A stretch of DNA of 64,000 bases from an uncultured virus (IMG/VR IMGVR_UViG_3300025738_000003) (IMGVR_UViG_3300025738_000003); one strand, 5' to 3'. Shown: positions 7,112 through 63,922, numbered from the stretch's first letter. Notes: generated by a model not told the origin, from the letters alone. Translations and numbers: made by a program.

Positions 7112-7174
7112 ATGCCAGGTCAAGGTAACGGAGATGATAAAGACCAAGAAACAGGTGAAACTACTGAAAAGTAG
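7112..7174 (+). CDS. 20-aa micro-peptide MPGQGNGDDKDQETGETTEK (not in ORF track)
   Basis: AAGGA RBS, ATG...TAG, followed by a terminator-like hairpin. Confidence 0.65.
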   Translation: MPGQGNGDDKDQETGETTEK

Positions 7175-7195
7175 CTTTTAATTTTCTTGAGTAAT

Positions 7196-7222
7196 GGGCC
7201 GCATTTAGTTGCGGCTCTTTTT
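7196..7222 (+). terminator. Terminator/attenuator between the peptide and membrane-protein genes
   Basis: GGGCCGCA-TTTAGT-TGCGGCTC-TTTTT. Confidence 0.65.
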
Positions 7223-7232
7223 AGGAGTTATT

Positions 7233-7772
7233 ATGGGTGAATGCTCTTTTGAACCCCACCTGCAAATATTACTGAATCGCTATATCTTAATTTCGATAGT
7301 GTTAATAGGCTTTAGCTTTACATTAAAAAATAAGAAAGCCACTTGGTTAGCCTTAATTACAGCCATTTCTTTCTGGGTAGGCTATACGCTGCAATGTGAT
7401 TTCAAAGTAAATGATCCTGAGCGTATATGGCGATATGCTTTTTGGGTGGGATTAGATACAATATATTTATTGATTTTGTTTGGCTTATACAAATTCAAGC
7501 GAATAGAAGAATGGCAGTTTGGTGCAATATGCTGCTTGCAAGTTTTTAGTTTTTTTGTACAACTTATACGTTTACCAGATGCACATAAGTTTAATTATTT
7601 TTATACAGATTCTTTTTATGCGTTGGCACTGAATTTGTACAATATACTGATTATTATTGTGGTCGCTTTGCCTACAATAATGACAATCATCGGAAAAATA
7701 AAGGAATATAAAGATGGAAGATATGTACGTCGCAATGGGTCTGATCACGGCATGTTTGATGCTCGCTATTAA
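7233..7772 (+). CDS. Multi-pass (~5 TM) membrane protein, cassette A
   Basis: AGGAG RBS before ATG 7233; several hydrophobic helices. Confidence 0.8.
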   Translation: MGECSFEPHLQILLNRYILISIVLIGFSFTLKNKKATWLALITAISFWVGYTLQCDFKVNDPERIWRYAFWVGLDTIYLLILFGLYKFKRIEEWQFGAICCLQVFSFFVQLIRLPDAHKFNYFYTDSFYALALNLYNILIIIVVALPTIMTIIGKIKEYKDGRYVRRNGSDHGMFDARY

Positions 7773-7986
7773 GTTTGGGCATACAGTTTTAGTTACCCTT
7801 AAAGCCAGGTACGTTGCGCAAGGCTCAATAAATGCACTTAACCTACTAAATGAAGATCAAATGATTGATGTAATCACTGACCCCAAAAGACAAGCAGTAG
7901 CGAGATTGTCATACAAGATCAAAAGAGATAGGTTGTTATCTAAATCTAAGATTGCAATCGCGAATGCGGTTGCAGAGTCGAGGTAA
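7714..7986 (+). CDS. Small membrane-anchored protein
   Basis: AAGGA RBS, N-terminal TM, basic C-terminus; overlaps the previous gene. Confidence 0.6.
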   Translation: MEDMYVAMGLITACLMLAIKFGHTVLVTLKARYVAQGSINALNLLNEDQMIDVITDPKRQAVARLSYKIKRDRLLSKSKIAIANAVAESR

Positions 7987-7992
7987 TAAATT

Positions 7993-8451
7993 TTATTTAA
8001 GTTTTTTACTTATCAATTTCATAATCTCAATATTCATTCTGTCTTCTTGATTATTCAATAAAGAACTATAGGCGAGAGCTGTTGCTTTTGCCTTAAACTC
8101 TTCATCTTCAATGCCCGTTTCTCTACATACTGTATTCGCATAAACAATTGCTTTAGTGAGTGTTGGTAAATCAATATCACTGCTAACAGATAAAAATGCA
8201 CCTTCGTCGTTAAATCCTAACGGGTGCAGTAGTTGCCAAGGAGAAACTTCGAGCCCTTCGGCTAAATCATGTAATTTATTCAGCGTTACATTTACACCAT
8301 CACTATCCTCTCGAACAAGAGAAGCCGTATATGATCTATCCAGCCCACCAGTTTCAGTTTGAGTTAATTCAGATAATGTTTTAGCGTTTGCAATCCCTTT
8401 CGCCTTCATTAGCGATATAACATTAAGAGATAGAAGTTTTTTAATGTTCAC
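7993..8451 (-). CDS. Phage repressor (XRE HTH, no S24 peptidase domain)
   Basis: LDRSY...NVTLNKLHDLAEGLEVSPWQLL; divergent from cro; GTG start with GGAG RBS. Confidence 0.8.
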   Translation of the reverse strand: MNIKKLLSLNVISLMKAKGIANAKTLSELTQTETGGLDRSYTASLVREDSDGVNVTLNKLHDLAEGLEVSPWQLLHPLGFNDEGAFLSVSSDIDLPTLTKAIVYANTVCRETGIEDEEFKAKATALAYSSLLNNQEDRMNIEIMKLISKKLK

Positions 8452-8613
8452 GCGTTCTCCTTATATAAAAACCGAATATGTCTTTTTTCATTATAGTACA
8501 TAAGGTAGAAGATAATCCACACTTATTAGTAGAGCAAATACTTTGTAATTGCTTTCATTTACCCAACAACAATCACTTATATGGATAAAGTCCACTTTCA
8601 CTATAAAAAACAA

Positions 8614-8652
8614 TTGATGTTAAATTCCTTATGATCTAATATATTCTACATA
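8614..8652 (+). promoter_or_regulatory. PR-like promoter overlapped by an operator
   Basis: TTGATG-17-TAATAT; 8631-8652 is the exact reverse complement of 7013-7034. Confidence 0.65.
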
Positions 8653-8674
8653 ATTGTAGGGGATAAAAGTTAGC

Positions 8675-8899
8675 ATGAAAGATTACAGTAAAAATGCAGA
8701 AGACTATCTTGCAGAACAAGTGCAAGTCAGAGGTAATATTCCAGCTATTGCTAAGGCGATCGATTTGCCTAAAGCGTGGTTATATAAAGTTGCCCAAGGA
8801 AAGATCCCTAACCCTCAAGTTAACCGAGTAATGAAAGTACTTGCCCATAAAGAATCTCAAGAAAAGATATTGGCTTCCAACAAAAGTGAGACAAGATAA
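8675..8899 (+). CDS. Cro-like HTH protein
   Basis: IPAIAKAIDLPKAWLYKVAQGKIPNP; position in the switch region. Confidence 0.8.
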   Translation: MKDYSKNAEDYLAEQVQVRGNIPAIAKAIDLPKAWLYKVAQGKIPNPQVNRVMKVLAHKESQEKILASNKSETR

Positions 8900-9438
8900 T
8901 GCGATTAACAATGCAAGAAAACACTGTATTAAAAGCTATTGCTACATGCCACCCAGTTAAATCTAGTTTTGCAAAGTTGACTAAAGAAACTGGTATGGCA
9001 CGAAACGAAATTGAGGAAGTTGTTACTGGCCTTAAGAAAATTGGGTTTGTTAACGTTACGCCAGGTAATGAAGTTTATTTTATGGAGGATGGCCGTAATC
9101 ACCTTGGAATTACTAGTGTTCCTACGGCAAAAAGCGCTCAGGACAAAGAAGAGCGTAAACCTGTTGTTCCTGCGTTACTGACTTCTGCACTTGTTGCAAG
9201 AAAGCCGGTAGTTAAACAAAAGGTTGCTCGATTAAGTGAGTCAACAATCGAAACTCAGCAGAATGGCGTATTAACTTCTATTGACGAACTGGCCATAAAG
9301 TTAAATAAGCCGGTTATCAAAATTACTGATTGTGATTTGAAAGGCCAAGCCTTAGCGAGATTAGCTGATCTTATGTCTGAAGATATCGCAGAGCTATTGC
9401 TTGATATTAAAGCCGACTTAGAGCGAGCTGCTGCGTGA
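8899..9438 (+). CDS. Winged-HTH hypothetical protein (cII position)
   Basis: N-terminal wHTH-like pattern; coupled to cro. Confidence 0.6.
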   Translation: MRLTMQENTVLKAIATCHPVKSSFAKLTKETGMARNEIEEVVTGLKKIGFVNVTPGNEVYFMEDGRNHLGITSVPTAKSAQDKEERKPVVPALLTSALVARKPVVKQKVARLSESTIETQQNGVLTSIDELAIKLNKPVIKITDCDLKGQALARLADLMSEDIAELLLDIKADLERAAA

Positions 9439-9582
9439 TTTTGTTTTTGAATAAAAAATCGCGTTAAGGATGACGCGTAGCTTTGCTGCAAGTTCATGAC
9501 GTTTGATGATTGAACGAACGTAAACGCAGTATCAATCAAGGTGTAAGGAATAGGGGATTTATCCCCTAAACCCTACAGGCAT

Positions 9583-9668
9583 AAAAAAACCGCTTAATCC
9601 CTGAGAAAGATTACAAAGCGGTTCAATTACAACGGAGTCAGTATGACAAGTTCAGCAGAAATAATCAA
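9583..9668 (-). ncRNA. OOP-like antisense RNA with its promoter
   Basis: Minus strand TTGATT-17-CATACT at the start of O; terminator AACCGCTT...AAGCGGTT-T-run; same position as lambda oop. Confidence 0.6.
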
Positions 9669-10497
9669 CTTTCCAGAACAAGAACAATTTCAGGAGCGCG
9701 AGTACGTGAAAGCAGACACTGATAACGGTTACTATCGCGTGGCTAACGAACTCGGTTTGGCTTTATGTAAAACGCAATTAAGCGACCGTGAAGGACGTTT
9801 AGTACAAGCAGTAATGATGAAGACCTTTGGTTTTAATAAATCGATGGATTGGATTTGTAACGGCCAATTAAATGATATTACGGGCATTAAACAAACCCAT
9901 ATATCAGACATTAAAAAAGGCTTGGTTGCTCGAGGCATATTACTGGTTGAGGGTAAAAAAGTTGGTCTTAATCCTGTGGTTTCTGATTGGGTATATTGCA
10001 AGAATCAGCCAATCACCCCTAAACAGGGTAAAACAAAAGCACCCCTGAACAGGGTAGCAACCACCCCTGAACAGGGTAGACCCACCCCTAAACAGGGTAA
10101 AAAAACACCCCGAACAGGGAACCACAATAAACAAGACACTATAACAAAAAACAATATTACAAAAGACAGTAAGTTTTCAGTTGAACTTCCTCAGTGGTTA
10201 CCAGTTGAACTTTGGAATGAATTTGTGTTGATGCGTAAGACCATTAAAAAACCTTTAACTGAGAATGCTGCAAAACGAATGATCACCAAGCTAATCAAGT
10301 TTACCAATAAAGGTTTTGATGCAGCAGCTCAGTTAACCAACTCGATTGATAATTGTTATTCAGACGTTTATGAGCCTAAAAACTTTCAGGCTAAACCATC
10401 CAAAGCAAAAAACACTGCCGAAAATTTTGCCGAAAAAGATTATGGTGAAACCGTTGTACCTGAGTGGATGCAGAACGAGCAAGGAGTTCAATCATGA
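9643..10497 (+). CDS. Replication initiator, lambda O-like
   Basis: ADTDNGYYRVANEL...KTFGFNKSMDWI; internal iterons. Confidence 0.9.
   Translation: MTSSAEIINFPEQEQFQEREYVKADTDNGYYRVANELGLALCKTQLSDREGRLVQAVMMKTFGFNKSMDWICNGQLNDITGIKQTHISDIKKGLVARGILLVEGKKVGLNPVVSDWVYCKNQPITPKQGKTKAPLNRVATTPEQGRPTPKQGKKTPRTGNHNKQDTITKNNITKDSKFSVELPQWLPVELWNEFVLMRKTIKKPLTENAAKRMITKLIKFTNKGFDAAAQLTNSIDNCYSDVYEPKNFQAKPSKAKNTAENFAEKDYGETVVPEWMQNEQGVQS
10014..10120 (+). repeat. Origin iterons (5 copies)
   Basis: CACCCCT(A/G)AACAGGGTA at 10014, 10040, 10062, 10083, and a degenerate copy at 10106. Confidence 0.9.
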
Positions 10498-11345
10498 AAA
10501 ACATTACTGACCTCGCGAATGCAGTAGCTGTTGATGGAAGCTGTGAAGAACACGGTGCTTGGAGTTATCGATTACCGCCATTTTTAGCCAAGCGTGGTGG
10601 GCAATGTCCAGATTGCGTTGAAGCCCAAAAGCAAACAGAACTCACAGCATTGAATGACAAGCAAACTCAAGAGTGTATTGAGCAAAAGCAAGATGCTATC
10701 CGTCATCAATTCTCTAAGGCTGCTATCCCTAAACGCTTTTTAAACCGCACGTTTGATAATTATGAAGTGACGAGTCAACAGCAACAACTAGCCTTAAAAA
10801 TTGCTAGACAATATGCCAGTCACTTTGTAGAACGTTTAGAAAATGGTGGTGGTTTAATTCTTCAAGGGGTACCAGGAACAGGTAAAACACATTTAGCTTG
10901 TGCTATTGCTAATCAAGTCATTACCCATGGTTCATCAGCTCGCTTCACTACGGTAATGCAACTTGTTAGGGCGATTAGAGCTACGTGGAAAAGAGATTCG
11001 GAGCAATCTGAGGATCAAGTGCTTCAGTCGCTTATTGATTATGACTTATTGATCATTGATGAAATAGGCGTTCAGTATGAAACAGAATCGGAAAAATTGA
11101 TTTTGTTTGATGTGCTCAATGGCCGTTATGAAAACGAGAAACCTACCATCTTGCTAACGAACTTGGTTGGCCAAGAGCTAAACACCTGTATAGGTGAACG
11201 CAACGTTGACCGAATTCAAGAAGGTGGTGGTACCACTATTTCTTTCACCTGGGGAAGTTATAGAGCAAATGTTTATCAAAACGATGCTTTAAAGAGTGTG
11301 TCGTGTGCAGAGATTGCCGCTCAAAATATTAAGGGAGTAGCTTAG
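10494..11345 (+). CDS. DnaC/IstB-like helicase loader ATPase
   Basis: Zn-binding Cys/His residues, GVPGTGKT Walker A, LLIIDEIG Walker B. Confidence 0.92.
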   Translation: MKNITDLANAVAVDGSCEEHGAWSYRLPPFLAKRGGQCPDCVEAQKQTELTALNDKQTQECIEQKQDAIRHQFSKAAIPKRFLNRTFDNYEVTSQQQQLALKIARQYASHFVERLENGGGLILQGVPGTGKTHLACAIANQVITHGSSARFTTVMQLVRAIRATWKRDSEQSEDQVLQSLIDYDLLIIDEIGVQYETESEKLILFDVLNGRYENEKPTILLTNLVGQELNTCIGERNVDRIQEGGGTTISFTWGSYRANVYQNDALKSVSCAEIAAQNIKGVA

Positions 11346-12593
11346 TTGCCTCTATTGAATGAAAAAATAACCGATAAGCTTATTTCTTCACATTTGGCTT
11401 TGCCAACAGTGACAAGAGTACGTGATACGTTGAACCCGCTAATACAAATACGGTTTGGTACTAAGCGAACTCAGGGTAAGTGGTACCTTCACCATCGTAA
11501 CAGTTGGATAAAAGTAGCACTGTGGCCAGAGGTTAAGACTGCAGACATCAGACGTAACTTTAGTGTGTTAATTGAAAAGGTCCGTAATAAGCAGGAGATC
11601 ATAGTAAGTACTGATTGTTTGCTAACAGTCGGTGATGTATTAACTTGGTATGACGAGCGCATGCAAGACCATGCTAACTTAAGTGATCAGCGTAAGAAGG
11701 ATATTGCTAGCGGTATTAAATGCCACTTATTACCTTGCTTAGAAAAAGTAGACTTAGATGATATCAATAAATCATTGCTTGATAAGTTACTTATATGGCC
11801 CTCACAGAAGAAATTGGCAAAGAGTTCGGTAACTAAAATATTCCATACATTGAAAGCGGCTTTTAGTTCTGCGTTTGATTTGGATTTAATGCCAAACAAC
11901 CCTATAGCCGGTATAAAAATTTCTGACTTTGGTGATTTTTCTAGTGATAGAAAAGAGCCTCGAGTGTTTCCGTATATGGTCCAAGCATTACTTGATGAAA
12001 TGGCAGAGCAAACACTGATATTGAAAACCCTTTGTATGTTGGTTTTAACCTTAGGTACTCGCATTGGGGAAACCCGTAAAGCTAAATGGCATAACTTCAA
12101 TTTAGGCCAAGATCCTGTTTGGATTATTCCTCAGCAGGACACTAAAACCAGTAAAACCCACACTATCCATTTACCTGTTGATGTTGTTGCCATGTTAAAG
12201 CAGTGGCGTGAGTATCAAGTTTCGTGTCGATATAAAGGTAAATTTTTATTCCCTAACTTCGCTGGTAAAGATTGCTTAAGCAGTAATGATGCTTTGTCGA
12301 TGGTTCATGCTTTCAGTAGTGGAGAATGGTCGAGCCATGACTTACGCAAGTGTGCTAGAACATGCTGGCAAGAGCAGGGTGTTGATTCAATGGTTGGTGA
12401 AATTATGCTTAATCATGATGTTGGTAAGGTTGCAGAGGCATATATAGGTAGAGCATTTATTTTGAGACTTGAGGCATTAGAGCAACATTGCTCATGGTTA
12501 AAAATGCAGAAAAACAATTGCTTTGTAATCAGTCCAGTTTCAGTCCAACGCACTAGTGAGATTTTAGCAAAAGATAGCTGTGGTGTGGTTTAG
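11346..12593 (+). CDS. Second tyrosine recombinase
   Basis: GTRIGE, TKT, HDLRK, LNH, AY catalytic set. Confidence 0.88.
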   Translation: MPLLNEKITDKLISSHLALPTVTRVRDTLNPLIQIRFGTKRTQGKWYLHHRNSWIKVALWPEVKTADIRRNFSVLIEKVRNKQEIIVSTDCLLTVGDVLTWYDERMQDHANLSDQRKKDIASGIKCHLLPCLEKVDLDDINKSLLDKLLIWPSQKKLAKSSVTKIFHTLKAAFSSAFDLDLMPNNPIAGIKISDFGDFSSDRKEPRVFPYMVQALLDEMAEQTLILKTLCMLVLTLGTRIGETRKAKWHNFNLGQDPVWIIPQQDTKTSKTHTIHLPVDVVAMLKQWREYQVSCRYKGKFLFPNFAGKDCLSSNDALSMVHAFSSGEWSSHDLRKCARTCWQEQGVDSMVGEIMLNHDVGKVAEAYIGRAFILRLEALEQHCSWLKMQKNNCFVISPVSVQRTSEILAKDSCGVV

Positions 12594-12651
12594 CGTGACG
12601 TTTAGATGTATCTGTATGTGGAATATTTTAATTAATAAAAAAGGCTCTGAT

Positions 12652-12747
12652 ATGACTAATTTTATGCATTATGACGAACAGCGTGAAGCCGATTTAGATA
12701 AACAAAAAGTGCAACAAGTACCTGGCGAATGTAAGGGAATTTCTTAG
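12652..12747 (+). CDS. 31-aa small ORF (possible gene remnant)
   Basis: AAGG RBS; MTNFMHYDEQREADLDKQKVQQVPGECKGIS; stop overlaps the next start. Confidence 0.4.
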   Translation: MTNFMHYDEQREADLDKQKVQQVPGECKGIS

Positions 12748-12968
12748 TGATACCACAAGGTGGAATAATCATAAAAGCGGCTAGAAAAGCTAGGGGCATG
12801 ACACAAACCTATGTAGCCGATAGTCATGGCGTTGATGTTGATACTATCAGCCGATGGGAACGATTAAAAACATCAGTCCCATTCGATGATGCTATTTGGA
12901 TCATAACTGATATTTTTAAAATGTCTCTTAACGAAGCTATGGAGCTAGCCACCAATGAGAACAATTAA
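12747..12968 (+). CDS. XRE-family HTH regulator
   Basis: IKAARKARGMTQ...TISRWE. Confidence 0.85.
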   Translation: MIPQGGIIIKAARKARGMTQTYVADSHGVDVDTISRWERLKTSVPFDDAIWIITDIFKMSLNEAMELATNENN

Positions 12969-13302
12969 AGACGTTCAAAGTGAGTTAAAGCAATGGGGTA
13001 ATTTCTGGGCTCGCCAAGAAGAGGGGCAAGGATTTTCTAGTAAATCTAACGCTCAATCCGTAAAGGAAGCTTGTGAGGTTGGTTGCGCCAGCTCAAGTAC
13101 ATTGCATTTATTTAGCCATTCGGCAGATAATATTCATGTTCCTCATAATATTGAAGTTATCGATAATATTTTGGAATGTTTAACCCCTCAATGTAAAACA
13201 GCTATTCGGCAGCGTTATATCAATAAAGGGAAGGTATTATATTTTCCAGATAAAAAAGCCTTTCTTTTTTGGGTAGGAAAAGCTGAAAGAGAATTGCTTT
13301 AG
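12955..13302 (+). CDS. Probable late-gene regulator (Q-like)
   Basis: LKQWGNFW N-terminus; last gene before the lysis region. Confidence 0.55.
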   Translation: MRTIKDVQSELKQWGNFWARQEEGQGFSSKSNAQSVKEACEVGCASSSTLHLFSHSADNIHVPHNIEVIDNILECLTPQCKTAIRQRYINKGKVLYFPDKKAFLFWVGKAERELL

Positions 13303-13309
13303 CTGATCC

Positions 13310-14182
13310 TTACCGGGCTTCTGAGTTTGCCCTTAGTTTTTCTTTCAGTAGCCTTAGCTTCCATTTGTCTACGAGCTTTTCAAGGTTAATGTATGTGTTT
13401 GGGGAGTCTACTTGAGCATGCTTTACAAACAAGCAGCATTTTTTGAATTGCCCAACCACAATGCCTGATAGACACTCAAATAATAAGTCTTCATCTAAAT
13501 CGTCCTTAGTTATCCCTGCAGCTAAAAACTCAAAATAGTTCAGTAAGTACCTAGCTGCATGCAAACCATCAACGAACATCGCATCCTTAGATGTGTCAGT
13601 GCAACTTGTGTTTAGCAATTTATAATATTTTTCTGTTTCCTGAATATATTTTAAGTGCTCTTTTTTAATTGGTGATGAGGCAGGGAAGCATTTAGTGAAG
13701 TTTTTAACTTGAAGCTGATATTCGGTACTTACTCTTGATTGCATTAATAAACTTAGAGTATGAGTTTTTCTGTGACTTTTATTTGATAATTGTACATGTA
13801 TAACCCAGCCTAGGGCTGCAGAACATGCAGAGAAAACTGAAATAACAACCAAGTAGGGTCCTGTGGTTACAATTGTGGCATTAACGGAGTAATTGTATAG
13901 ACAAAAAGAAGAAGCTATAAGGAATGCAACAATTGCTGAAACGCCATACCAAACTTGGTAAGAAAATGCTTTTTTGGAATGGCCAAACCTGTAAAGCACA
14001 GGGATCATCCCTACATTTATAAGGAAGAATATTGCCGCCCAGAAAAAAGGGTAGAATTTATTATAAGATTCGCTGTAATCGCCAATATGATGCACAAAAG
14101 AGACAATCATGATGACTATAGCGAGTGTTAAAACAAGCACATTGGTCAGTTTAAATTGCGCCTTGAAACCATCCTCTTTCAT
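13310..14182 (-). CDS. DUF4760-like membrane protein, cassette B
   Basis: 4 TM helices, then RKTHTLSLL...YLLNYFEFLAAGI...LDEDL...LVDKW. Confidence 0.75.
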   Translation of the reverse strand: MKEDGFKAQFKLTNVLVLTLAIVIMIVSFVHHIGDYSESYNKFYPFFWAAIFFLINVGMIPVLYRFGHSKKAFSYQVWYGVSAIVAFLIASSFCLYNYSVNATIVTTGPYLVVISVFSACSAALGWVIHVQLSNKSHRKTHTLSLLMQSRVSTEYQLQVKNFTKCFPASSPIKKEHLKYIQETEKYYKLLNTSCTDTSKDAMFVDGLHAARYLLNYFEFLAAGITKDDLDEDLLFECLSGIVVGQFKKCCLFVKHAQVDSPNTYINLEKLVDKWKLRLLKEKLRANSEAR

Positions 14183-14206
14183 TGTAAACGTCCTTTTTTA
14201 AGCAAT

Positions 14207-14233
14207 AAAAAACCCCTTATGAAATAGGGGTTT
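14207..14233 (-). terminator. Terminator/attenuator between the peptide and DUF4760-like genes
   Basis: Minus strand AACCCCT-loop-AGGGGTT followed by a T-run. Confidence 0.7.
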
Positions 14234-14259
14234 GTTGGGTTTTCATTTTTGAGTATAAA

Positions 14260-14304
14260 TTAACCACATCCGCTTCCGTGCATTAGTATAATTGATTTTT
14301 TCAT
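14260..14304 (-). CDS. 14-aa micro-peptide MKKSIILMHGSGCG (not in ORF track)
   Basis: AGGGTG RBS, ATG...TAA, followed by a terminator. Confidence 0.6.
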   Translation of the reverse strand: MKKSIILMHGSGCG

Positions 14305-14342
14305 AATTTTTCACCCTGTATTATTGTTGCCTTCTTTGAGTA

Positions 14343-14369
14343 TAGTCGGCAATTTAAGAAATTTCTTGA
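14343..14369 (-). promoter_or_regulatory. Sigma-28 (FliA)-type promoter
   Basis: Minus strand TCAAG-N14-GCCGACTA versus consensus T(A/C)AAG-N14-GCCGATAA. Confidence 0.6.
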
Positions 14370-14701
14370 GCATATTGTTTCGAGTCAGTTATTTTCTTGT
14401 TGTGATAAAAGTAAAATAAAAGAGCAAATGCTTCAATAAAGCTATTGAACCATGTTACATGAAACTGCGCAATGCTTTTACACATCAATTTGTATGTATT
14501 TGTTACTGTATGAAGTGGTGTATATTGTCATTAAGCACAACATATTGTTGTTTTTATGGTGATTTCATAAATTAAGCACATTATGTAGTAATCAGCCTAA
14601 ATTTTCAGTGTTTATATATAAATTTATTAACTTATTACATAACTCGGCATATATGCGGTTTTTATTCCCCATAAAAAGCGTATGATTTTGCTATTGTTGT
14701 T

Positions 14702-14732
14702 AAAGCCCCGCCAGAAATGTTGGGGCTTTTTT
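14702..14732 (+). terminator. tR'-like terminator in the late leader
   Basis: AAAGCCCC...GGGGCTTTTTT. Confidence 0.7.
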
Positions 14733-14866
14733 CATCTGTAGCGAGCAGCACTATTAATATGTGCCAAGAGTTTGGTGTGGCAAGCCATTAATACATCAGT
14801 TAGCCATCTTACATACATGTTTTGCCCTGTCATTTGATAGGGCTTTTTTATATCTGAGACTAAATT

Positions 14867-15295
14867 ATGCCTAAGTTCGGAAACGCTTCTACTACAAGGC
14901 TGGCAACTTGTCATATAGACCTACAGCTCATATTTAATGAGGTTTGTAAAACTGTAAATTGCTCTATCTTCTGTGGTTACCGAGCAAAAGAATCGCAAGA
15001 GAAAGCTTTCATTGCTGGTTTATCTCAAGTTCAATTTCCAAACTCAAAGCACAACAATTTTCCGTCTATGGCTGTAGATGCAGGTCCATACTTTCCAGAA
15101 TTAAAGAATACGGATTGGGATGATGCCATAGCGTTTGCTTCATTTCATGGTTATGTAAAACGTGTTGCAGAAGAGCTGTTAAAGGCAGGCCGCATTAGTC
15201 ATACCATACGTTGGGGTGGTGATTGGGATTCAGACGGCAGAACTTCAGATGAAACCTTTAAAGACTTACCTCATTTTGAATTGGTGAAAGTATGA
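14867..15295 (+). CDS. Endolysin, M15 L-Ala-D-Glu peptidase
   Basis: GYR, SKH...AVD, WGGDW, DLPHFEL. Confidence 0.92.
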   Translation: MPKFGNASTTRLATCHIDLQLIFNEVCKTVNCSIFCGYRAKESQEKAFIAGLSQVQFPNSKHNNFPSMAVDAGPYFPELKNTDWDDAIAFASFHGYVKRVAEELLKAGRISHTIRWGGDWDSDGRTSDETFKDLPHFELVKV

Positions 15296-15858
15296 ACTTA
15301 CTGAACATATTAGGAAAGGTTGGCAGTTCAATACTCGCTGATGTTATACCAGGTGGCAATGCTATTTTAAAAATGGTGAATGGGTTTTTACCTAGTGAGG
15401 GTAAGCTATCAGAAAAATCAACCGGTGCAGATATTCAAGATGCAATATCTCAGTTGCCGGCTAACTTTCAAGTTGAAGTATTAAGCAAAGAGTTTGATGT
15501 TGAAATAACGTCGATACAGGAACACACCAAAGTAATAGCCGCATTAGGTGAAGTAGATAAAACAGGCAACTCAACAAGACCATTTATTGCTTTGATGATG
15601 GCGTGGGTTGTTTCGTTCGCTATCGTTGGTTTGATTATCATGCTAGGTATTGCGATTAATGAAAAAGATTCAGAGTCAGTTATCGCTATCGGCAATAACT
15701 GGCCTTTAGTTACTGCGTTGTTAGGTATTCCATCCGGCTTACTAAATTCATACTTTGGTAAGCGTACTAAAGAAAAGCAGCAAAAGTATCAAGCCATATC
15801 AAATGCAGAGCCTAAATCAGTACTCACTGACTTAATGAGTCTATGGAAATCGAAATAA
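15292..15858 (+). CDS. Holin-like membrane protein
   Basis: TRPFIA + TM...SYFGKRT; adjacent to the endolysin. Confidence 0.6.
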   Translation: MNLLNILGKVGSSILADVIPGGNAILKMVNGFLPSEGKLSEKSTGADIQDAISQLPANFQVEVLSKEFDVEITSIQEHTKVIAALGEVDKTGNSTRPFIALMMAWVVSFAIVGLIIMLGIAINEKDSESVIAIGNNWPLVTALLGIPSGLLNSYFGKRTKEKQQKYQAISNAEPKSVLTDLMSLWKSK

Positions 15859-16609: not shown

Positions 16610-16700
16610 GGGGTACTAAATTGTTCAAAACAAAACGCTCTACCAGTACAGCCACCTAAGTCAATTTTTACACGTGAGAAATAAGAAAACTTTTTTTGAA
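16603..16700 (+). other. Putative cos region, element 1
   Basis: G-run, GC-rich core and T-run between HNH and terS, as in HK97-like phages. Confidence 0.5.
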
Positions 16701-16717
16701 AAATAATTGAGGTTATT

Positions 16718-17158: not shown

Positions 17159-17161
17159 TCA

Positions 17162-19047: not shown

Positions 19048-19050
19048 GCT

Positions 19051-38048: not shown

Positions 38049-39809
38049 ATGACAATTCCACATTTAATAAAAGGCGTTTCAAACGTTGAAGATTTATTTG
38101 ATCGTGTAAACGCTCTTATCACAGCACAAACTGGGGTTGAACTGCCTGTTGTAGCAGCTCCTTTTGATATATGGATGGTGGCGGGTCAATCACTTTCAAT
38201 CGGCACATTAAACCCTGCATTTAACGTGAAGCCACCGCAGCCGCAAATACCCAGTAACTTTAAAATGTTTAATCAAGTTGGCTCAACTGGCGTACAAGAT
38301 AGAGCACTAATCCCAAGTGACATTAATGAGTTAGTAGCGTATCAAGAGCAAGGCGAATCGGGCATGGCTAGCTATTACACGCTAGGGACTACATTTTTAG
38401 CTGGAACTACAACCAAGGAAACCGCATGGATTCCTGCGGGTAAAGGCGGTGGGTCTATAGAAAATATCGGTAAAGACGGTTCATATGCGTGCTATGCGAA
38501 CCAGCAAGCTATGCTAGCAAGGCTAAAGGTATTGCAAAGCAGTGCAACCGTTAAAGGGATTATTTTCATTCATGGTGGTGCTAATTATCAGGACACCAAG
38601 CAAGAATACTACGATAAAATGGTAGCGTTTTTAGCTGACCAAATAAGTGCTATACAAGCTGAATATCCCAACCAAACCCCTCCTTTGTACATATATCAAC
38701 ACGGTGGCGAGCGAATTACCGATCAGGTACAACAAGCTCAGTTACAAATGGCTAAAGATGGGTTGGCTGTTTGTGTTGGTGCAACATACTGGCTCAACAG
38801 ACAGCACCCCAATACGTCTGAGGGGCTTAACGGGTCAACAAACTTTGAAAGAATACACCTGAACCCACTTGGTTATCAGTATTTGGGTGATATGTTCAAA
38901 AGAGCCGTCAAACTTGGTACGTCATTCAAGCCATTGCATGTAGAAAGTTATGAATGGGTAACAACAAAGCAATTAAAGTTACATGTACATAACCCTGAGA
39001 TTGGCTCGACGCTTGTTATTGATACTACTCAGCCATTTTTACCAGCCTTTGCGGGCAGTGGCATAGAGGTCGAACGGCCTAATGGTGAGCTTTTCCCTGC
39101 AACCAACGTTACTGTCAATGAGAACACAATCACTGTTGATTTTGCTGGTGACGTGCTGATAGGTGACAGGATTCGGTTAGGTTTTACGCCAGAAGATATG
39201 AAATATGACGGTGAATTTGCACCTAACCCAGCTATAGGTTCATACCCTTCTGCAATGATAGGCACAAACATAAGGGGCAGCAAGTCATTACCAGCAAGCC
39301 TTGGTAATGATGATTACTATGATTGGCTTGCGGTTGATTCGATAGATACCGAGGCGCTGCCATCTTCACCTGTAGTTGCTCGCGGTAATAATTGTTGGAA
39401 AACTGGGGCAACACAAGGTATAGCGGGATGGGGTTCTTCTCGCACTTTCCTTGGTGGGGTTATGACTGTCGTTACTGATGGTATTTCGGAGGAATTCCCG
39501 ATATCACGAAGCCTACAAAATGCAGGGACAAATAAAGAGCACAGTACATGGAATATAAAAGCCGCTCGTACTTTTGAGTTTACCGCTAATGCCGCTATTG
39601 ATACTGATATAGCGTATTACCAAGTATTTATCGGAGGTGCTGGGACAAACATAGCACAATCAGACATAGTGGATGGCAAAGTAACGCTACAACTAACCGC
39701 AACAATTGATTTTGATATCCGTGTAGCATTGAAAGAACGAACTGGTGAGGATATCACAGCATTTACTGGCCACTTGAGTGATATAGAAATTAGAGAGGTG
39801 TTTAGCTAA
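38049..39809 (+). CDS. SGNH/SASA-type carbohydrate O-acetylesterase
   Basis: VAGQSL, GKGG, HGGAN, IHLNPLGY blocks. Confidence 0.75.
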   Translation: MTIPHLIKGVSNVEDLFDRVNALITAQTGVELPVVAAPFDIWMVAGQSLSIGTLNPAFNVKPPQPQIPSNFKMFNQVGSTGVQDRALIPSDINELVAYQEQGESGMASYYTLGTTFLAGTTTKETAWIPAGKGGGSIENIGKDGSYACYANQQAMLARLKVLQSSATVKGIIFIHGGANYQDTKQEYYDKMVAFLADQISAIQAEYPNQTPPLYIYQHGGERITDQVQQAQLQMAKDGLAVCVGATYWLNRQHPNTSEGLNGSTNFERIHLNPLGYQYLGDMFKRAVKLGTSFKPLHVESYEWVTTKQLKLHVHNPEIGSTLVIDTTQPFLPAFAGSGIEVERPNGELFPATNVTVNENTITVDFAGDVLIGDRIRLGFTPEDMKYDGEFAPNPAIGSYPSAMIGTNIRGSKSLPASLGNDDYYDWLAVDSIDTEALPSSPVVARGNNCWKTGATQGIAGWGSSRTFLGGVMTVVTDGISEEFPISRSLQNAGTNKEHSTWNIKAARTFEFTANAAIDTDIAYYQVFIGGAGTNIAQSDIVDGKVTLQLTATIDFDIRVALKERTGEDITAFTGHLSDIEIREVFS

Positions 39810-49202: not shown

Positions 49203-49210
49203 GGATAATT

Positions 49211-49935: not shown

Positions 49936-49968
49936 ATCTTGCCACCTCTACTTTATAAGTGAAAAACC

Positions 49969-52367: not shown

Positions 52368-52368
52368 T

Positions 52369-56138: not shown

Positions 56139-56165
56139 TTCAATCAACATTAAATAAGGGATGAA

Positions 56166-58841: not shown

Positions 58842-59221
58842 TTACAGATTATATATTTGCAGTAACAGATTTAGAGGCTTTCAGAGTCTCGTTGTTATCA
58901 ATTGAGTCTGATTTGGTAAGTATTGGCGAAGATGGTGTAGCAACCATTCTCAGCCCGACCACAATGATTAAATACAAGGGGAATCAGTCAGTTGCTATTG
59001 CTAGGATTGATACTAACTCACTGTCTGAACTAAGTAGTTTTGCTAGTATGGTTTTAGTGGGTGAGGCTAAGCAATCATTCATTAAAACTAACGATGATGT
59101 TAATTGGCTCAATGAAGATTTATATCATTCGATTCATAGTATCGAACCGATAACTTATATAGATGATTATGGTTTTGAACAAAGCTATATCCCGTCTAAA
59201 CTTCATTGTGTTTTTGCGTAG
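58838..59221 (+). CDS. Fibre-associated hypothetical protein
   Basis: Coupled to the fibre gene. Confidence 0.6.
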   Translation: MITDYIFAVTDLEAFRVSLLSIESDLVSIGEDGVATILSPTTMIKYKGNQSVAIARIDTNSLSELSSFASMVLVGEAKQSFIKTNDDVNWLNEDLYHSIHSIEPITYIDDYGFEQSYIPSKLHCVFA

Positions 59222-59232
59222 GAATATTAATC

Positions 59233-59598
59233 ATGGGTATTTGGTCTAGTTTATTTGGTAAAGACAATGTTATTCAAGCGGGCATTGATGGCCTTGACAA
59301 AATAGTGCACACCGACGAAGAAAAGTCAGACGCTAAACAAGCGTTTTTAAAGTTATACGAACCGTTTAAAATTGCACAACGTTTGTTGGCTGTTATTTAT
59401 GGCGTGCCTTATGCGCTCGCGTGGTTTGTTACCTTTATGGTGTCATTTTTTACGGACGTATCAAAACAAGAGGCGTTATTGCAGGGCGATATAAGCCGCA
59501 TTGTTTTTGCTATTGTTAGTTTTTACTTTGGTGGTGGTGCTGCTGAGGGTGTTGTTAGAATGTTAGCTAATAGAGGTAAGAACAGTGAAAGAAAGTAA
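59233..59598 (+). CDS. Holin-like membrane protein
   Basis: TDEEK...QR + 2 TM...FYFGG. Confidence 0.6.
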   Translation: MGIWSSLFGKDNVIQAGIDGLDKIVHTDEEKSDAKQAFLKLYEPFKIAQRLLAVIYGVPYALAWFVTFMVSFFTDVSKQEALLQGDISRIVFAIVSFYFGGGAAEGVVRMLANRGKNSERK

Positions 59599-59815
59599 AC
59601 GTCATTATTTAATGCGGGTCTTAATCGCCTTTGACCAGTTTTTTAATGTACTGGTTTTTAATGGACGGCCCGATCATACTATTTCTGGTCGTGTTGGTTA
59701 TTTTGCTATTAAGGGTGAAAAATGGGCGTTGTATTGGGAAAAAATAATTAACACTTTGTTTTTCTGGCAAGCTGATCATTGTAGAAAATCAATTGAATGG
59801 GATGAAATGAAGTAA
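59585..59815 (+). CDS. Small phage protein
   Basis: AFDQFFN...GRPDHTISGRVG...DHC. Confidence 0.7.
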   Translation: MKESKRHYLMRVLIAFDQFFNVLVFNGRPDHTISGRVGYFAIKGEKWALYWEKIINTLFFWQADHCRKSIEWDEMK

Positions 59816-60036
59816 GTACAAGGTGAGTATAAGTTAAGCAAGGCTATGATTAATCATAGATCCTTGCTTTTTTTTGCTGTAGCATAACCGATCATCAATA
59901 TATCGTTCAGGCTATTTAAATAATAAAATAGTGGAAATAATCACATATTGTGATACATTGTGTATCACTTGCCATCGTTGGTGGCTAAAGGTAAGTATTA
60001 AGAAGAAAATTTAAACAATCACCGAAATTCAGACAT

Positions 60037-60134
60037 AAAAAAACCGCTTTTGGCGAGCGGTTGATTTACTAGGTTTAAAATCACAAACCCCATAACAAGG
60101 ACTTGATTTTAAGCTGACGGGTTTCTTTTTGCAA
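60037..60134 (-). ncRNA. Counter-transcribed antisense RNA (copy control) with its promoter
   Basis: Minus strand TTGCAA-17-TAAAAT; terminator AACCGCT-loop-AGCGGTT-T-run in the repA leader. Confidence 0.7.
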
Positions 60135-60157
60135 GAAAAAAATAAAAAGAGCTTAAA

Positions 60158-60964
60158 ATGAGAGTAAAAAATTCAACTCCGGCGTTTACTCGTCCGAATC
60201 ATCAAAAGAATTTACCGTCTTTTTTAGTGGCATGTAACACCATGCTAACCAAGTGCCCTGCGTCGGCGTGGGACGGTTGGCAACTTATTCGCCGTGTTCA
60301 TGGCAAATCATTAATGAATACTCACCGCGCGAGTGCGATCAATTCCCTTTTCATTGCTATTGCTAATCATGTTGATTTAAAGAGCAGCGTGGTTTTTTCT
60401 AATGTTTATGATCTGGCCCATGCTACGGGCTTGGCTACGGTAAGTGCGGCGGGTAATGTTTCAATAACGCGTTGTAGTCGTGCCATAATCGAAATGGAAA
60501 AAGCGGGCTTTCTTGAAACTGAATTGGTTTGGGATCGCGTCTTGGGTTGTCATATACCAAAATTTATTAATGTCACTGATTTGTTTTGGGAGATAGCACA
60601 CCCCGAGGGCACAAAGGGTTATCATGCAGCGCGTGAAAGCCAAATTTCTTACCAAAGGCAAGGTTTAGCAGAGCCAGAGGAATGGTTGACCGTGAGCCAA
60701 GCCAAAGAGCGCCGCCGTAGAATGCACATTAAAACCGCTTTTAAGTTAAGACGCGCTAAACATGAAAAATCAAAGCAGCGAACAGCGGCCAAGAAGCTAA
60801 CCAATGACAACATTGTTGTTTCTCGCGGTAAGATAGGCAAAGAAATACTAGACGAACTTGGCTCTTTACACGGCCTAGACCCTAAAGCGTTTCAGGTGAT
60901 GATCAGCCAACGTTACGCACTGTATAACAAAATAGCAGCAGACCCCGCACCCACAAGGCACTAA
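60158..60964 (+). CDS. repA: Plasmid replication initiator (IncFII RepA-like)
   Basis: HRASAI...LAHATGLATVSAAGNVSITRCSRAI...WD....IPK.I.VT..FW. Confidence 0.82.
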   Translation: MRVKNSTPAFTRPNHQKNLPSFLVACNTMLTKCPASAWDGWQLIRRVHGKSLMNTHRASAINSLFIAIANHVDLKSSVVFSNVYDLAHATGLATVSAAGNVSITRCSRAIIEMEKAGFLETELVWDRVLGCHIPKFINVTDLFWEIAHPEGTKGYHAARESQISYQRQGLAEPEEWLTVSQAKERRRRMHIKTAFKLRRAKHEKSKQRTAAKKLTNDNIVVSRGKIGKEILDELGSLHGLDPKAFQVMISQRYALYNKIAADPAPTRH

Positions 60965-61114
60965 GCCAACTTATTAAATAAAACCCTGCCTTGGCGGGGT
61001 TTTAGTCGTTCCCTCGAATAAATAACCATGTAATATGGGCCTTACTCACTTCTCATTATGCCGTTTTCACCCCTGTTTTTAATCATTCTGCGCTAGATAA
61101 ATCACATCCTTTAG

Positions 61115-61200
61115 TTATACACAATATAATGCAATTGCTTTATCTAATATAACGCCCACGTATAGATATATAATGCAAAGTCACTATAACTACTTATATA
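61115..61200 (+). promoter_or_regulatory. Putative plasmid origin downstream of repA
   Basis: DnaA box TTATACACA at 61115-61123; ATATAATGCAA twice; AT-rich. Confidence 0.55.
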
Positions 61201-61523
61201 TAAATAAACCTTATGGCTACGCCTAAAGTGAATAAATGCACGCCCTTGGTTTTTTTGCTAAAGAAACAGCAAAAGGGCGTAATTGTCGTTTGGTTCACTG
61301 CCTGGTGATAACTGACCGCTGCGTCACCTACATTTTCAATGAGATAATACCACTTGAGTAATCGTTGATGTTGAAGCTTATTAAGAGCGTCGCTTCGCTC
61401 AGTTTGGCAAGGGATAGACAAGTTTTGTGCCTATTTGTTTAATAGGCCTGTTTATTCTATTATGCGTGCTTATTACTTCATTACGGCTCACTAACAACAC
61501 ACCCCATAAAAGGAATTTAACGC

Positions 61524-61736
61524 ATGGCTAAAGATTTAGAACGAACGCTAAAGAAATGTAAAAAGTGCAAAAGAAAAACTGAGCACTTACGAAATACAGA
61601 CAAAACAGGTTTATTGTCCCTGTTAATCCATATAGCGTTAATTTTTATTACGGCTGGTATTTGGCTTATTCTTATTGTTATTTACAAGATCCTTAACGCT
61701 AAGGTGGGCGGCTGGCAGTGTAGCGAGTGTGGTTAA
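61524..61736 (+). CDS. Small membrane zinc-ribbon protein
   Basis: CKKC - hydrophobic hairpin - CSEC. Confidence 0.75.
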   Translation: MAKDLERTLKKCKKCKRKTEHLRNTDKTGLLSLLIHIALIFITAGIWLILIVIYKILNAKVGGWQCSECG

Positions 61737-62004
61737 ATGGGTTTTTCCCTACAGTTTAATAGCTATTAAGCCTGTATTTTTATACGGGCTTTTTTTTGAC
61801 CTAAAATAACCGTTTTGGTGATTTAGTGCTTAATATTGCTTTAATACTGAGCATATAGAATAAACAATATTCAACGGCAGTAAACGGCAGTAAAAGACAG
61901 TTGTTATTATTTGTTAAATTAACGTAAATTTAGCGTCTATTTTGGTGTTGATATTTGTAAGGCAGTGTAATGGCGATGTGTATTTGTTTAGCGTAGATTC
62001 GCCC

Positions 62005-62118
62005 GTATCACAAACGACCGTTATTTGACCACCACGTAAACACGGTGTTAATTAATGCTTTCGTGTTTCAAAACTATGTGTCACTATTGATGTCTCAAAA
62101 CAACGGCTTTATGACACA
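62005..62118. promoter_or_regulatory. res-like site
   Basis: Imperfect palindrome TGTCTCAAAA...TTTATGACACA; related half-sites GTATCACAAAC and GTTTCAAAAC. Confidence 0.55.
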
Positions 62119-62124
62119 CAGACA

Positions 62125-62676
62125 ATGAAATTTGGTTACGCAAGGGTTAGCACTAAACAACAAGAATTAGCCTTACAAGTAGACGCGCTTAAAGCGGCTG
62201 GCTGTGATGAAATAATCACCGAAGTTGAAACAGGCGCGAACAATGATCGCCCCGCACGATTGGCCATGATAGATAAGCTTAGAAAAGGCGATATTGTGAC
62301 GGTGTGGCGTTTAGATAGGTTTGGCCGTTCTATGCCTGATTTAATAGAAAAGGTTGAACAGTTAAGCGCCCAAGGTGTTGAGTTTATCTCGTTACAAGAA
62401 AATATAGATACTACCTCAGCCACGGGCCGGTTAATTTTTCATATTTTTGCGGGCCTCGCAGAATTTGAACGTAATTTGATTTCAGAAAGAACAAGAGCCG
62501 GATTAGCAGCAGCACGAAAACGCGGTAAATTGGGTGGAAGAAAAAGAATTATGAATGATATTCAGGTCAAAACAGCTAGACGATTAATATCAGGGGAAAA
62601 CCCCGTAAATCGTGAAGAAGTGGCCAAAATGCTTGGCGTTAGCCGGTCAACACTTTACCGAGAATTAAAAGAATAA
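62125..62676 (+). CDS. Serine resolvase/invertase
   Basis: GYARVST, LDRFGRS, AEFER, C-terminal HTH GVSRSTLYR. Confidence 0.96.
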   Translation: MKFGYARVSTKQQELALQVDALKAAGCDEIITEVETGANNDRPARLAMIDKLRKGDIVTVWRLDRFGRSMPDLIEKVEQLSAQGVEFISLQENIDTTSATGRLIFHIFAGLAEFERNLISERTRAGLAAARKRGKLGGRKRIMNDIQVKTARRLISGENPVNREEVAKMLGVSRSTLYRELKE

Positions 62677-62783
62677 AAACCTTACTTTTTATATTGATTT
62701 TAATCAAAATAATCACGAATCGTGTTTAAAAAATAGTAAGCGTGTCGTATTATAGAGACTGGTTTTTTATTGGGAAATGAATA

Positions 62784-62981
62784 ATGGAAGTCACGAATTC
62801 AGGCGTTAAAGCAATAGTTAATATTGGTCCGGAAGATAATAAATTACAAAAAATCGAGCCGCAACAAGATAAAGCGACTGCGGCACTCAGCACAGACAAG
62901 ATAACATTGTCTGATGATTTAATTATGACTATGGGTACTGGTGGCGGCACTACTAAGCCACCACCAACAACAGAAAACTAA
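62784..62981 (+). CDS. 65-aa peptide ending MGTGGGTTKPPPTTEN, cassette C
   Basis: GGGA RBS; low-complexity; directly upstream of a membrane protein. Confidence 0.7.
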   Translation: MEVTNSGVKAIVNIGPEDNKLQKIEPQQDKATAALSTDKITLSDDLIMTMGTGGGTTKPPPTTEN

Positions 62982-62991
62982 AGGACATTAC

Positions 62992-63594
62992 ATGGATGTA
63001 TTATCGTTCTTGATATTTATTGATGGGTACGTGGGGAGCTTAAATCATGTACTTATCAATAATCTACTTGCGTTGATCTTGGTTGTTTTGGCTTATGACA
63101 ATAAAGAAGATAGTAATTTTTTGTTTGTTATTTCTATGATGTTAATACCAAAGCTAGTTGATATTTTGGTATTGAATGATTTTTTATTGTCTGACTTTGT
63201 GCCGAATTATTTATTTTTCTTATTTTATTCTGTTTATGACGCACTCGTTCTTTGGTTGATTCTATATAGAACCAAAGTGATTCGTCTTTTTTTGATTATA
63301 AAAATAAAAGTGTGCCACCTTTTAAATATAAATAGTGATGCTGAAACTTTTACCTATGTCCGTCATGTTAACGAATATAAAATAACAGTTATCTTTGCAG
63401 TAAGCATTCTTATTAACTTAATTGTAGCTGTCGAATACCCGCTAAGATGGTATATAAGTGATGAAATATTATATTTTTACTATTTGTATGCACCATTAAA
63501 ATTTGGATTGAATATAGCGTTAGTTTATTGGGGTTCAAAAATGAATCCCGAAAAACAAAATACCTCAAGGAGTACACCAGGTGAATGTAAGTAA
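62992..63594 (+). CDS. Multi-pass (~5 TM) membrane protein, cassette C
   Basis: AAGGA RBS before ATG 62992; hydrophobic helices. Confidence 0.8.
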   Translation: MDVLSFLIFIDGYVGSLNHVLINNLLALILVVLAYDNKEDSNFLFVISMMLIPKLVDILVLNDFLLSDFVPNYLFFLFYSVYDALVLWLILYRTKVIRLFLIIKIKVCHLLNINSDAETFTYVRHVNEYKITVIFAVSILINLIVAVEYPLRWYISDEILYFYYLYAPLKFGLNIALVYWGSKMNPEKQNTSRSTPGECK

Positions 63595-63922
63595 CTTTAT
63601 TGTTGAATTATTTGAACTGTCAGGATTGAGTGAGCATGATTTCTGTCAAAAACTCGATATTGATGCCGAACAGTTGGCTGAAATAAAAGCGGGTAAAGCT
63701 CCAAGCGGCTCAGCTTGTAAAATGTTGTTAAAGGCTGTTTCAGTCGCTTTATTTTCCAAAAAGACAAACTGTGACCTTGATGAAGTTCACGACGAATTGA
63801 CAAAGGCTCGGGCTATCATTGTGACGGTTGGGGAAAGCTCGCATTTAGCCGAACATCATCAGGATTCACTATCGGCGGCTGCTGAAATGATTGATAACTC
63901 AAGGCAAAGAATATCCTCATAA
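63581..63922 (+). CDS. XRE-like HTH protein
   Basis: SGLSEHDFCQKLDIDAEQLAEIKAGKAPS; AGGAG RBS; overlaps the membrane gene. Confidence 0.65.
   Translation: MNVSNFIVELFELSGLSEHDFCQKLDIDAEQLAEIKAGKAPSGSACKMLLKAVSVALFSKKTNCDLDEVHDELTKARAIIVTVGESSHLAEHHQDSLSAAAEMIDNSRQRISS

Follow-up and report, generated by a model that had tools for sequence, protein, structure and literature searches.

What is the role of three very short, glycine-rich open reading frames (ORFs) that each lie directly upstream of a gene for a multi-pass membrane protein? These pairs occur in a stretch of 64,000 nucleotides from an uncultured virus (IMG/VR IMGVR_UViG_3300025738_000003), here called the window, at three loci designated A, B and C. 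A preliminary description of this DNA had pointed out that all three short products contain the motif GxGxG, and had interpreted the loci as one recurrent candidate system, either a ligand and receptor for lysis–lysogeny communication or a peptide-gated toxin–antitoxin or abortive-infection module. By the sequence comparisons reported here, the mini-ORFs are conserved partners of the membrane protein genes, look translated and are under purifying selection. The window contains three different, non-homologous accessory modules of mobile elements, each with a mini-ORF directly before the gene of a multi-pass membrane protein, and each of these tiny Gly-rich genes probably controls its membrane protein. 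Our preferred, though tentative, explanation is that the mini-ORFs are translated regulatory leaders made of slow-to-translate residues, which would throttle or gate the production of accessory membrane proteins. The tiny ORFs, the membrane protein genes, the hairpins at loci A and B, and the overlapping third genes at loci A and C are all located where the preliminary description had placed them:

7112 to 7174, plus strand: mini-ORF A, 20 codons, product MPGQGNGDDKDQETGETTEK, with an AAGGA Shine–Dalgarno sequence upstream
7196 to 7222, plus strand: intrinsic-terminator-like hairpin A, stem at 7196–7217 with 8 pairs (6 G–C) followed by TTTTT; spacer fold −20.5 kcal/mol
7233 to 7772, plus strand: membrane protein A, 179 amino acids, five predicted helices, no known family
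7714 to 7986, plus strand: overlapping third gene of A, 90 amino acids, N-terminal hydrophobic helix, no family
14260 to 14304, minus strand: mini-ORF B, 14 codons, MKKSIILMHGSGCG-stop, running from 14304 to 14260
14204 to 14233, minus strand: intrinsic terminator B, 8-bp G–C-rich stem (approximately 14233–14210) followed by TTTTTT; spacer fold −11.1 kcal/mol
13310 to 14182, minus strand: membrane protein B, 290 amino acids, N-terminal helices and a DUF4760 domain
62784 to 62981, plus strand: small protein C, 65 amino acids, acidic, ending ...MTMGTGGGTTKPPPTTEN / ...MGTGGGTTKPPPTTEN
62992 to 63594, plus strand: membrane protein C, 200 amino acids, all-helical, no known family
63581 to 63922, plus strand: overlapping third gene of C, 113 amino acids, XRE-like N-terminus

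The B peptide of the preliminary description corresponds to the last 8 residues of the 14-codon ORF MKKSIILMHGSGCG. Across the six reading frames of the window (approximately 128,000 codons) GxGxG occurs 19 times, including 7 occurrences in stop-to-stop frames shorter than 70 amino acids. An upstream ATG-initiated ORF of 8–120 codons that contains this motif precedes 3 of 77 gene starts in the window, and these are exclusively the three membrane protein genes. Shuffling the 150 nt upstream of six homologues of the DUF4760 gene produced an ATG-initiated ORF ending in GxGxG-stop in 12 of 120,000 trials. Because of these three counts we conclude that the three-locus pattern exceeds chance.

Membrane protein B is a member of the Pfam family DUF4760 (PF15956; E = 6.4e-23; 81.9 bits against a cut-off of 25; residues 120–274), and also matches PHROGs of unknown function. 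The DUF4760 alignment is marked by the conserved motifs GW, [KR][TS]HT, SR.S.EY and LNY.EF.A.GI, and Atlas searches with protein B led to DUF4760 clusters only. A tblastn search with this protein against 50,697 phage records identified 7 records from 4 distinct lineages, the same 7 were recovered from three of its relatives, and 34 plasmid records contain further DUF4760 relatives. Units of the type found in the E. coli phage phi467 are present in 88 of 5,426 complete E. coli genomes, and type B units also occur in chromosomal prophage remnants, between integrase genes. The upstream DNA was compared at 10 DUF4760 loci including that of the window, which represent 8 lineages (L018/L023 and L019/L020 counted once each; the homologues P0015 and P0016 were left out). 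At 8 of these 10 loci, or in 7 of the 8 lineages, a tiny ORF precedes the DUF4760 gene; it has a ribosome-binding site and terminates in GxGxG-stop. The DUF4760 proteins at these loci are only 21–37% identical to that of the window, and the hosts of the unit include phages of E. coli, Pseudomonas and Acinetobacter. The mini-ORF products are as follows:

Pseudomonas phage Riah: MKLETGVGAG
Acinetobacter phage TRS1: MKTTKLNYRLADGYGIG
Acinetobacter phage A3926.3 and an A. baumannii record: MKTYNKLTDGYGLG
E. coli phage phi467: MKKTLTVGFGEG
E. coli CB9615: MKKTLAVGFGEG
E. coli G12: MKMIISVGFGEG

The N-terminal sequence and the length of these ORFs (10–17 codons) vary, and common to the lineages are only the last five codons with the adjacent stop codon, as would be expected if the key event occurs at the ribosome. 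Among relatives, synonymous codons are exchanged inside VGFGEG (GGT/GGA/GGC and TTC/TTT) and DGYG, which points to selection on the peptide sequence or on its decoding. All seven type B loci that were folded contain a Shine–Dalgarno sequence, the mini-ORF, a strong hairpin with a T-rich tail (spacer folds of −11.1 to −21.8 kcal/mol) and a DUF4760 start 1–27 nt later. This leader layout of a short ORF with a ribosome-binding site, an intrinsic terminator and a gene is thus invariant in the folded type B loci; among type A loci it is found in the window only, and type C lacks the terminator. The preliminary description had deduced an excess of peptide from the hairpins at A and B. For B, with a strong terminator at each of the seven loci, an excess of short transcripts is a fair inference. 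The type B mini-ORF is not annotated in any of the annotated records that we examined. The two copies in the plasmid lineage L019/L020 diverge in frame at the T run that follows the hairpin, which would fit a length difference of one base, and the annotated DUF4760 gene of L019 starts approximately 140 nt further upstream than that of L020, through leader and hairpin, which is probably an annotation artefact.

For type A, the DNA comparison comprised one relative, the syntenic prophage L005, which encodes a membrane protein 67% identical to A (the homologues P0010, P0012 and P0013 were left out). The mini-ORF of this prophage encodes MPGQGNGDDKDPDKT. Over the first 11 codons it differs from mini-ORF A by 4 synonymous and 0 replacement changes, and the 40 nt upstream are identical at 9 of 40 positions. 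The third gene is conserved and overlapping in L005, with approximately 53 of 90 residues identical, and a hairpin without a T run (−9.3 kcal/mol) occupies the place of hairpin A. A DNA pattern search for the type A peptide returned only the L005 contig, and a scan of genome contigs for A gave no matches. The family of membrane protein A consists of 5 proteins including itself in the 5.8-billion set. The protein has no match in Pfam, PADLOC or NCBIfam, and a weak match only (E = 0.0017) to a PHROGs family of unknown function. Its structural model reached a predicted local distance difference test score (pLDDT) of 73.8; the best VIA structural match (Z = 9.1) is a designed helical protein, which is uninformative and falls below the tool's bar for helical bundles. 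Two further features place the cassette next to a repressor gene:

7015 to 7033, plus strand: operator-like 19-mer adjoining the locus A promoter, with TTGACA 4 nt later
7993 to 8451, minus strand: cI-like repressor gene on which cassette A converges, with weak matches to PADLOC 'control protein' models

The 19-mer, TGTAGAATATATTAGATCA, is present as exact copies at 7015–7033 (plus strand) and 8632–8650 (minus strand) and with 3 mismatches at 6782–6800, and flanks the cI-like gene; shuffled sequences gave an expectation of 0 copies. The copy at 8632–8650 lies between the cI-like gene and a cro-like gene (8675–8899), and the assignment of the cI-like gene is based on its position opposite the latter and on the shared operators. 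Both the cI-like gene and the 19-mer at 7015 are conserved in L005. Through this 19-mer, which is common to the A promoter region and to the interval between the cI-like and cro-like genes, cassette A is linked to the immunity circuit.

Type C is a conserved module of three genes for an acidic protein of 55–68 amino acids, a helical membrane protein of 200 amino acids and an XRE-like protein of 112–114 amino acids. The small acidic ORF is found directly 5' of the membrane protein gene at all six divergent loci, five from the metagenome scan (L007–L011; L008 and L010 are near-duplicates) and one from the viral scan (L143), whose membrane proteins are 36–65% identical to the query that found each locus. 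The XRE-like gene follows directly 3' of the membrane protein gene in L007, L009, L011 and L143, the four loci long enough. The core of the small protein, TGGG-x-x-[KQR]-P-[PD]-[PN], is present twice in L007 and L010, its codons vary, and ..[TS]LSDD.. precedes it in most copies. The second L007 copy and the L143 copy read STGGG, so that GxGxG is one spelling only of the type C motif. The distance between the end of the small ORF and the membrane protein gene is 10 nt in the window and 18–23 nt in L007, L009 and L011, and no hairpin or terminator separates the two genes at locus C. We also considered RNA pairing as the main constraint on the C motif. The Gly and Pro codons can pair with each other in the window, but this pairing is not retained in L009 or L007, and the codons vary while the residues stay; the idea was rejected.

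The 5.8-billion set contains 8 members of the family of membrane protein C, with C itself counted, and the 1.84-billion library 21 representatives. Pfam matched 0 of 28 members; PADLOC and NCBIfam gave no match for C either. The structural model (pLDDT 89.2; predicted template modeling score 0.81) consists of seven helices and a short C-terminal one. Foldseek returned nothing at E ≤ 0.001, and the best VIA match, a designed helical barrel (Z = 9.3), is below the helical-bundle bar of that tool. The Atlas model of this protein resembles the membrane part of a putative diguanylate cyclase cluster with a template modeling (TM) score of 0.57 (by query), which hints at a sensor-type membrane domain and is a lead only. 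The third gene of C aligns with HTH_3 at E = 6.1e-4 and 20.2 bits, below the cut-off of 23, and has no PADLOC match. A scan of genome contigs for C and a tblastn search of C against plasmids gave no matches. The DNA pattern GTGGG...PPP retrieved at least 119 stretches; the 80 matches examined are unrelated and mostly G+C-rich, except for the window relative L075. Upstream of the small ORF the following element was identified:

62714 to 62724, plus strand: inverted repeat CACGAATCGTG, upstream of the locus C promoter region, with related copies in L007, L009 and L011

Both the CACGAATCGTG repeat and the GTGTCGTATTATAG box that follows it are retained ahead of the small ORF in type C; they may serve the XRE-like third gene as an operator, or else be a resolvase site.

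The loss of the upstream ORF from homologues had been named beforehand as the finding that would speak against a partnership, and the upstream ORFs are kept in types A, B and C. Conservation is highest in the Gly-rich stretch of each mini-ORF, and hardly any residues other than Gly, Pro and Asp occur in the conserved cores, which are MPGQGNGDDKD for type A, GxGxG-stop for type B and TGGG..P[PD][PN] for type C. A methionine one or two residues before GxGxG, described as a feature of all three peptides, is indeed present in the window, but it is absent from the B homologues (VGFGEG, DGYGLG, TGVGAG) and from some C copies, in which L, S or R replaces M. The idea that the three loci constitute one recurrent system did not survive comparison. 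BLASTP detected no similarity among the three membrane proteins, nor between the two third genes, and alignment of the C family with the A family by hhalign gave probabilities of 0.3% (8 sequences) and 0.6% (28 sequences). In A the motif is N-terminal, in B it immediately precedes the stop codon, and in C it lies within a protein of 55–68 amino acids. With membrane proteins and third genes unrelated, the cassettes are not one homologous system; judged by these alignments the three are analogous, not homologous.

How could such mini-ORFs act on their membrane proteins? In the leader explanation, the speed of mini-ORF translation would set the amount of membrane protein. At B, and at A in the window, most transcripts would end at the intrinsic terminator before the membrane protein gene, so that this gene would normally be throttled. 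At C, the small ORF that ends near the membrane protein gene could gate its translation. Here we infer that the mini-ORFs are translated, that ribosomes pause on them, that pausing is coupled to read-through, and what the membrane proteins do. The relevant passages of a ribosome profiling study of E. coli describe weak pauses at Gly, Pro and Asp codons, and a sharp fall in the charging of tRNA-Gly upon filtration that results in A-site pauses at Gly codons (PMC6377232). Such an action in cis is favored because of the leader layout in B, the last five codons and stop codon common to the B lineages, the Gly/Pro/Asp cores, and these reported pauses.

The trpL, hisL, pheL and thrL attenuators consist of a promoter, a short translated ORF in which codons for one amino acid are repeated near the end, an intrinsic terminator and the structural gene. 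The loci described here share this order; they differ in that no mutually exclusive antiterminator was found, in that the controlled gene is phage cargo instead of a gene for glycine metabolism, and in that non-Gly residues are selected within lineages. The upstream ORFs for arrest peptides in the pairs SecM–SecA, MifM–YidC2 and VemP–SecDF2 control genes for membrane biogenesis. Similar to these and to CliM–YidC, the mini-ORFs encode a Gly/Pro-containing C-terminal motif just before a membrane-related gene, and type C comes closest. In contrast, monitoring substrates of this kind carry a signal or membrane segment; we recognized none in the small products by reading, nor did we find consistent masking of ribosome-binding sites. 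In the microcin C operon, the 7-codon gene mccA is transcribed mostly as a short, abundant RNA, with a minor longer RNA that arises by read-through, and termination is governed by the binding of ribosomes to the mini-ORF (PMC4231749). The likeness lies in a gene of few codons directly before an intrinsic terminator and downstream genes. The differences are that the downstream gene here encodes a membrane protein, with no MccB-like or other enzyme family in Pfam and DUF4760 for B as the sole match, that the peptides end in Gly instead of Asn, and that there is no antibiotic operon.

Several observations weigh against the leader explanation. When the 3' arm of the terminator was blocked in seven B leaders, no common alternative pairing emerged that could serve as antiterminator, in what is a crude test without covariation analysis. 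The distance from the stop codon to the hairpin in B, approximately 15–45 nt by eye (26 nt in the window) or 0–31 nt to the first paired base of the spacer folds, is too long for a ribosome at the stop codon to mask the hairpin. Masking of the ribosome-binding site was not consistent over six type C loci, with mean unpaired probabilities of 0.22–0.60 compared to 0.42–0.53 overall, and with two imprecise starts. With 55–68 amino acids and a conserved ..[TS]LSDD.. stretch, small protein C has the appearance of a functional protein more than of a leader. Non-Gly residues such as F and E in VGFGEG are conserved within B lineages, and this would fit a partner-binding peptide as well. Finally, the E. 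coli plasmid lineage L019/L020 (30% identity) has a candidate leader, MVITQSGCFESGCFE, without GxGxG, although a hairpin and a T run are visible by eye.

A serious alternative is a peptide that acts in trans. In this model many short transcripts would supply the peptide in excess over few long ones, and the peptide would bind, plug or neutralize the membrane protein, or be processed by it; in one version it is a short-lived antidote to a membrane toxin, which would be released when an infecting phage shuts off host expression. The second suggestion of the preliminary description, a peptide-gated toxin or abortive-infection module, is possible as well. The architecture resembles mccA – intrinsic terminator – mccB, the spacing between stop codon and terminator in B suggests that termination is independent of leader translation, and the selection on non-Gly residues within lineages acts at the peptide level. 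Type C, a 55–68 amino acid protein in a three-gene module with an XRE-like third gene, has a gene order that recalls toxin–antitoxin operons, and A, B and C all occupy accessory positions of mobile elements. Against a partner peptide stands the need for three unrelated membrane folds that each recognize a short, flexible Gly-rich motif. The B peptides of 10–17 residues with only three fixed glycines hold little binding information, and Pfam, PHROGs and PADLOC revealed no modifying enzyme, exporter or protease nearby. In addition, the three P2-hotspot systems whose new validation is described in section 10 of PMC9122126 do not include DUF4760. We regard a partner peptide as possible if somewhat less probable; it ranks close behind the regulatory leader reading and fits type C best. 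A simpler proposal is that the three loci are independent features, B being a leader/terminator unit specific to DUF4760, C an ordinary small protein of a plasmid module, and A a lineage-specific mini-gene, with the Gly-rich likeness a coincidence of low complexity. The absence of homology among the membrane proteins and between the third genes, the N-terminal, C-terminal or internal position of the motif, the wider C family motif TGGG..P in place of GxGxG, and the missing terminator in C would all follow. Since no part of any of the three mini-ORFs is better conserved than the Gly-rich stretch, only 3 of 77 gene starts have such an upstream ORF, and GxGxG is as rare as 19 occurrences in about 128,000 codons, we consider this explanation unlikely.

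Highly improbable, in our estimation, is the preliminary interpretation of a secreted communication peptide and its membrane receptor, in analogy to the lysis–lysogeny decision by arbitrium. In arbitrium of Bacillus phages, AimP carries a secretion signal and AimR is a cytoplasmic receptor of the TPR type. The resemblance to AimP/AimR/AimX is limited to a phage-borne small peptide gene beside regulatory genes. A prophage does contain conserved small ORFs beside membrane proteins, an operator also found in the immunity region adjoins the promoter of locus A, C has an XRE-like third gene, and the similarity of membrane protein C to the membrane part of a diguanylate cyclase (TM 0.57) could be mentioned in favor of signaling, as a lead only. 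On the other hand, the small products start with MPGQGNG... (A), MKKSIILMHG... (B) and MEVTNSGVKAIVNIGPED... (C), and, judged by reading, contain no long hydrophobic segment, no signal peptide and no double-glycine export leader. No exporter, processing protease or other peptidase, RRNPP/TPR receptor or other receptor family was detected in or beside the cassettes with Pfam, PHROGs, PADLOC and NCBIfam; for the TPR/RRNPP families among the neighboring proteins this refers to Pfam and PHROGs. The order of peptide and then terminator in B is a cytoplasm-facing layout typical of leaders, the B unit occurs in Gram-negative hosts, and its presence in chromosomal prophage remnants between integrase genes also speaks against communication.

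The genomic settings of the three loci are as follows. A Pfam scan of the 79 predicted proteins of the window describes a lambdoid-type prophage from an integrase gene (388–1647) to the gene of a tail-associated esterase (38049–39809), then a second head and tail module at 40.2–59.8 kb, and next a plasmid-like stretch with the genes of an IncFII-type RepA (60158–60964) and a resolvase (62125–62676). Loci A and B are part of the prophage and locus C is in the plasmid-like part. Locus A lies between the leftward early operon and the cI-like gene, locus B, encoded on the other strand, has regulatory genes on one side and the lysis cassette on the other, and locus C lies directly 3' of the resolvase gene; these positions are sites where mobile elements carry optional cargo. 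The three membrane proteins are accessory cargo: the repressor gene and the leftward operator flank A, B adjoins the lysis genes, and C is beside the resolvase. They probably act in exclusion, abortive infection or element maintenance, and are possibly toxic. Families known from defense or exclusion (SieB, Rex and similar) were not matched by A or C in Pfam, a PADLOC scan of the three membrane proteins, the third genes and mini-ORFs A and C (mini-ORF B is below scannable length) was equally negative, and a sequence search of the Protein Data Bank (PDB) returned nothing below E = 0.029. DUF4760 appears as prophage cargo with 1,199 listings in the P2-hotspot Table S5A of Rousset et al. 2022 (PMC9122126). 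Protein B matches this cargo in family and in its accessory slot within a prophage; the difference is the upstream mini-ORF, which is not mentioned in section 10 and the related passages of that paper (PMC9122126).

Other parts of the window produced additional observations. A ParA-like gene is located past the window end in identical viral contigs (L001), and with the head and tail module, RepA and the resolvase in 40248–64000 this part may be a phage-plasmid or two adjoining elements. At 11346–12593 (plus strand), a second tyrosine recombinase gene follows the replication O-like and DnaC/IstB-like genes inside the prophage replication module. Two terminator-like hairpins with T runs at approximately 14700–14735 and 14820–14850 (plus strand), in a 680-nt gap before the endolysin gene (14867–15295), may form a late-operon leader that is read through by an antiterminator. 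An Rfam scan of the whole window gave 0 matches, a blastn search against phages had no matches, and the nearest record, G001, lacks both A and C.

The Gly-rich mini-ORFs might also act as sensors, a speculation to which we assign a rather small chance of being correct. In this view they would report the state of translation: a phage or a stress that perturbs elongation or termination at the core, or that halts the resupply of a short-lived peptide, would free the membrane protein, which in turn would halt the cell or block the invader, and this arrangement would have arisen by convergence on three unrelated proteins. If true, a translation-sensing switch in its type B form has spread through phages of E. 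coli, Pseudomonas and Acinetobacter.

Our literature search found no function in print for DUF4760, and searches for a GxGxG leader with terminator, for the concept of a prophage leader in abortive infection, and for the strings MKKTLTVGFGEG, MKKTLAVGFGEG and VGFGEG returned nothing relevant. Judged by this search, type B represents a variant of leader or mini-gene control that has not been described. Mini-genes of 10–20 codons are almost never annotated, and the GxGxG-stop unit precedes a widespread family of phage cargo; with the phi467-type unit present in E. coli, it is directly testable. Its mode of action would give DUF4760 a function, and would also reveal whether mobile elements generally use short Gly-rich ORFs to restrain dangerous membrane proteins.

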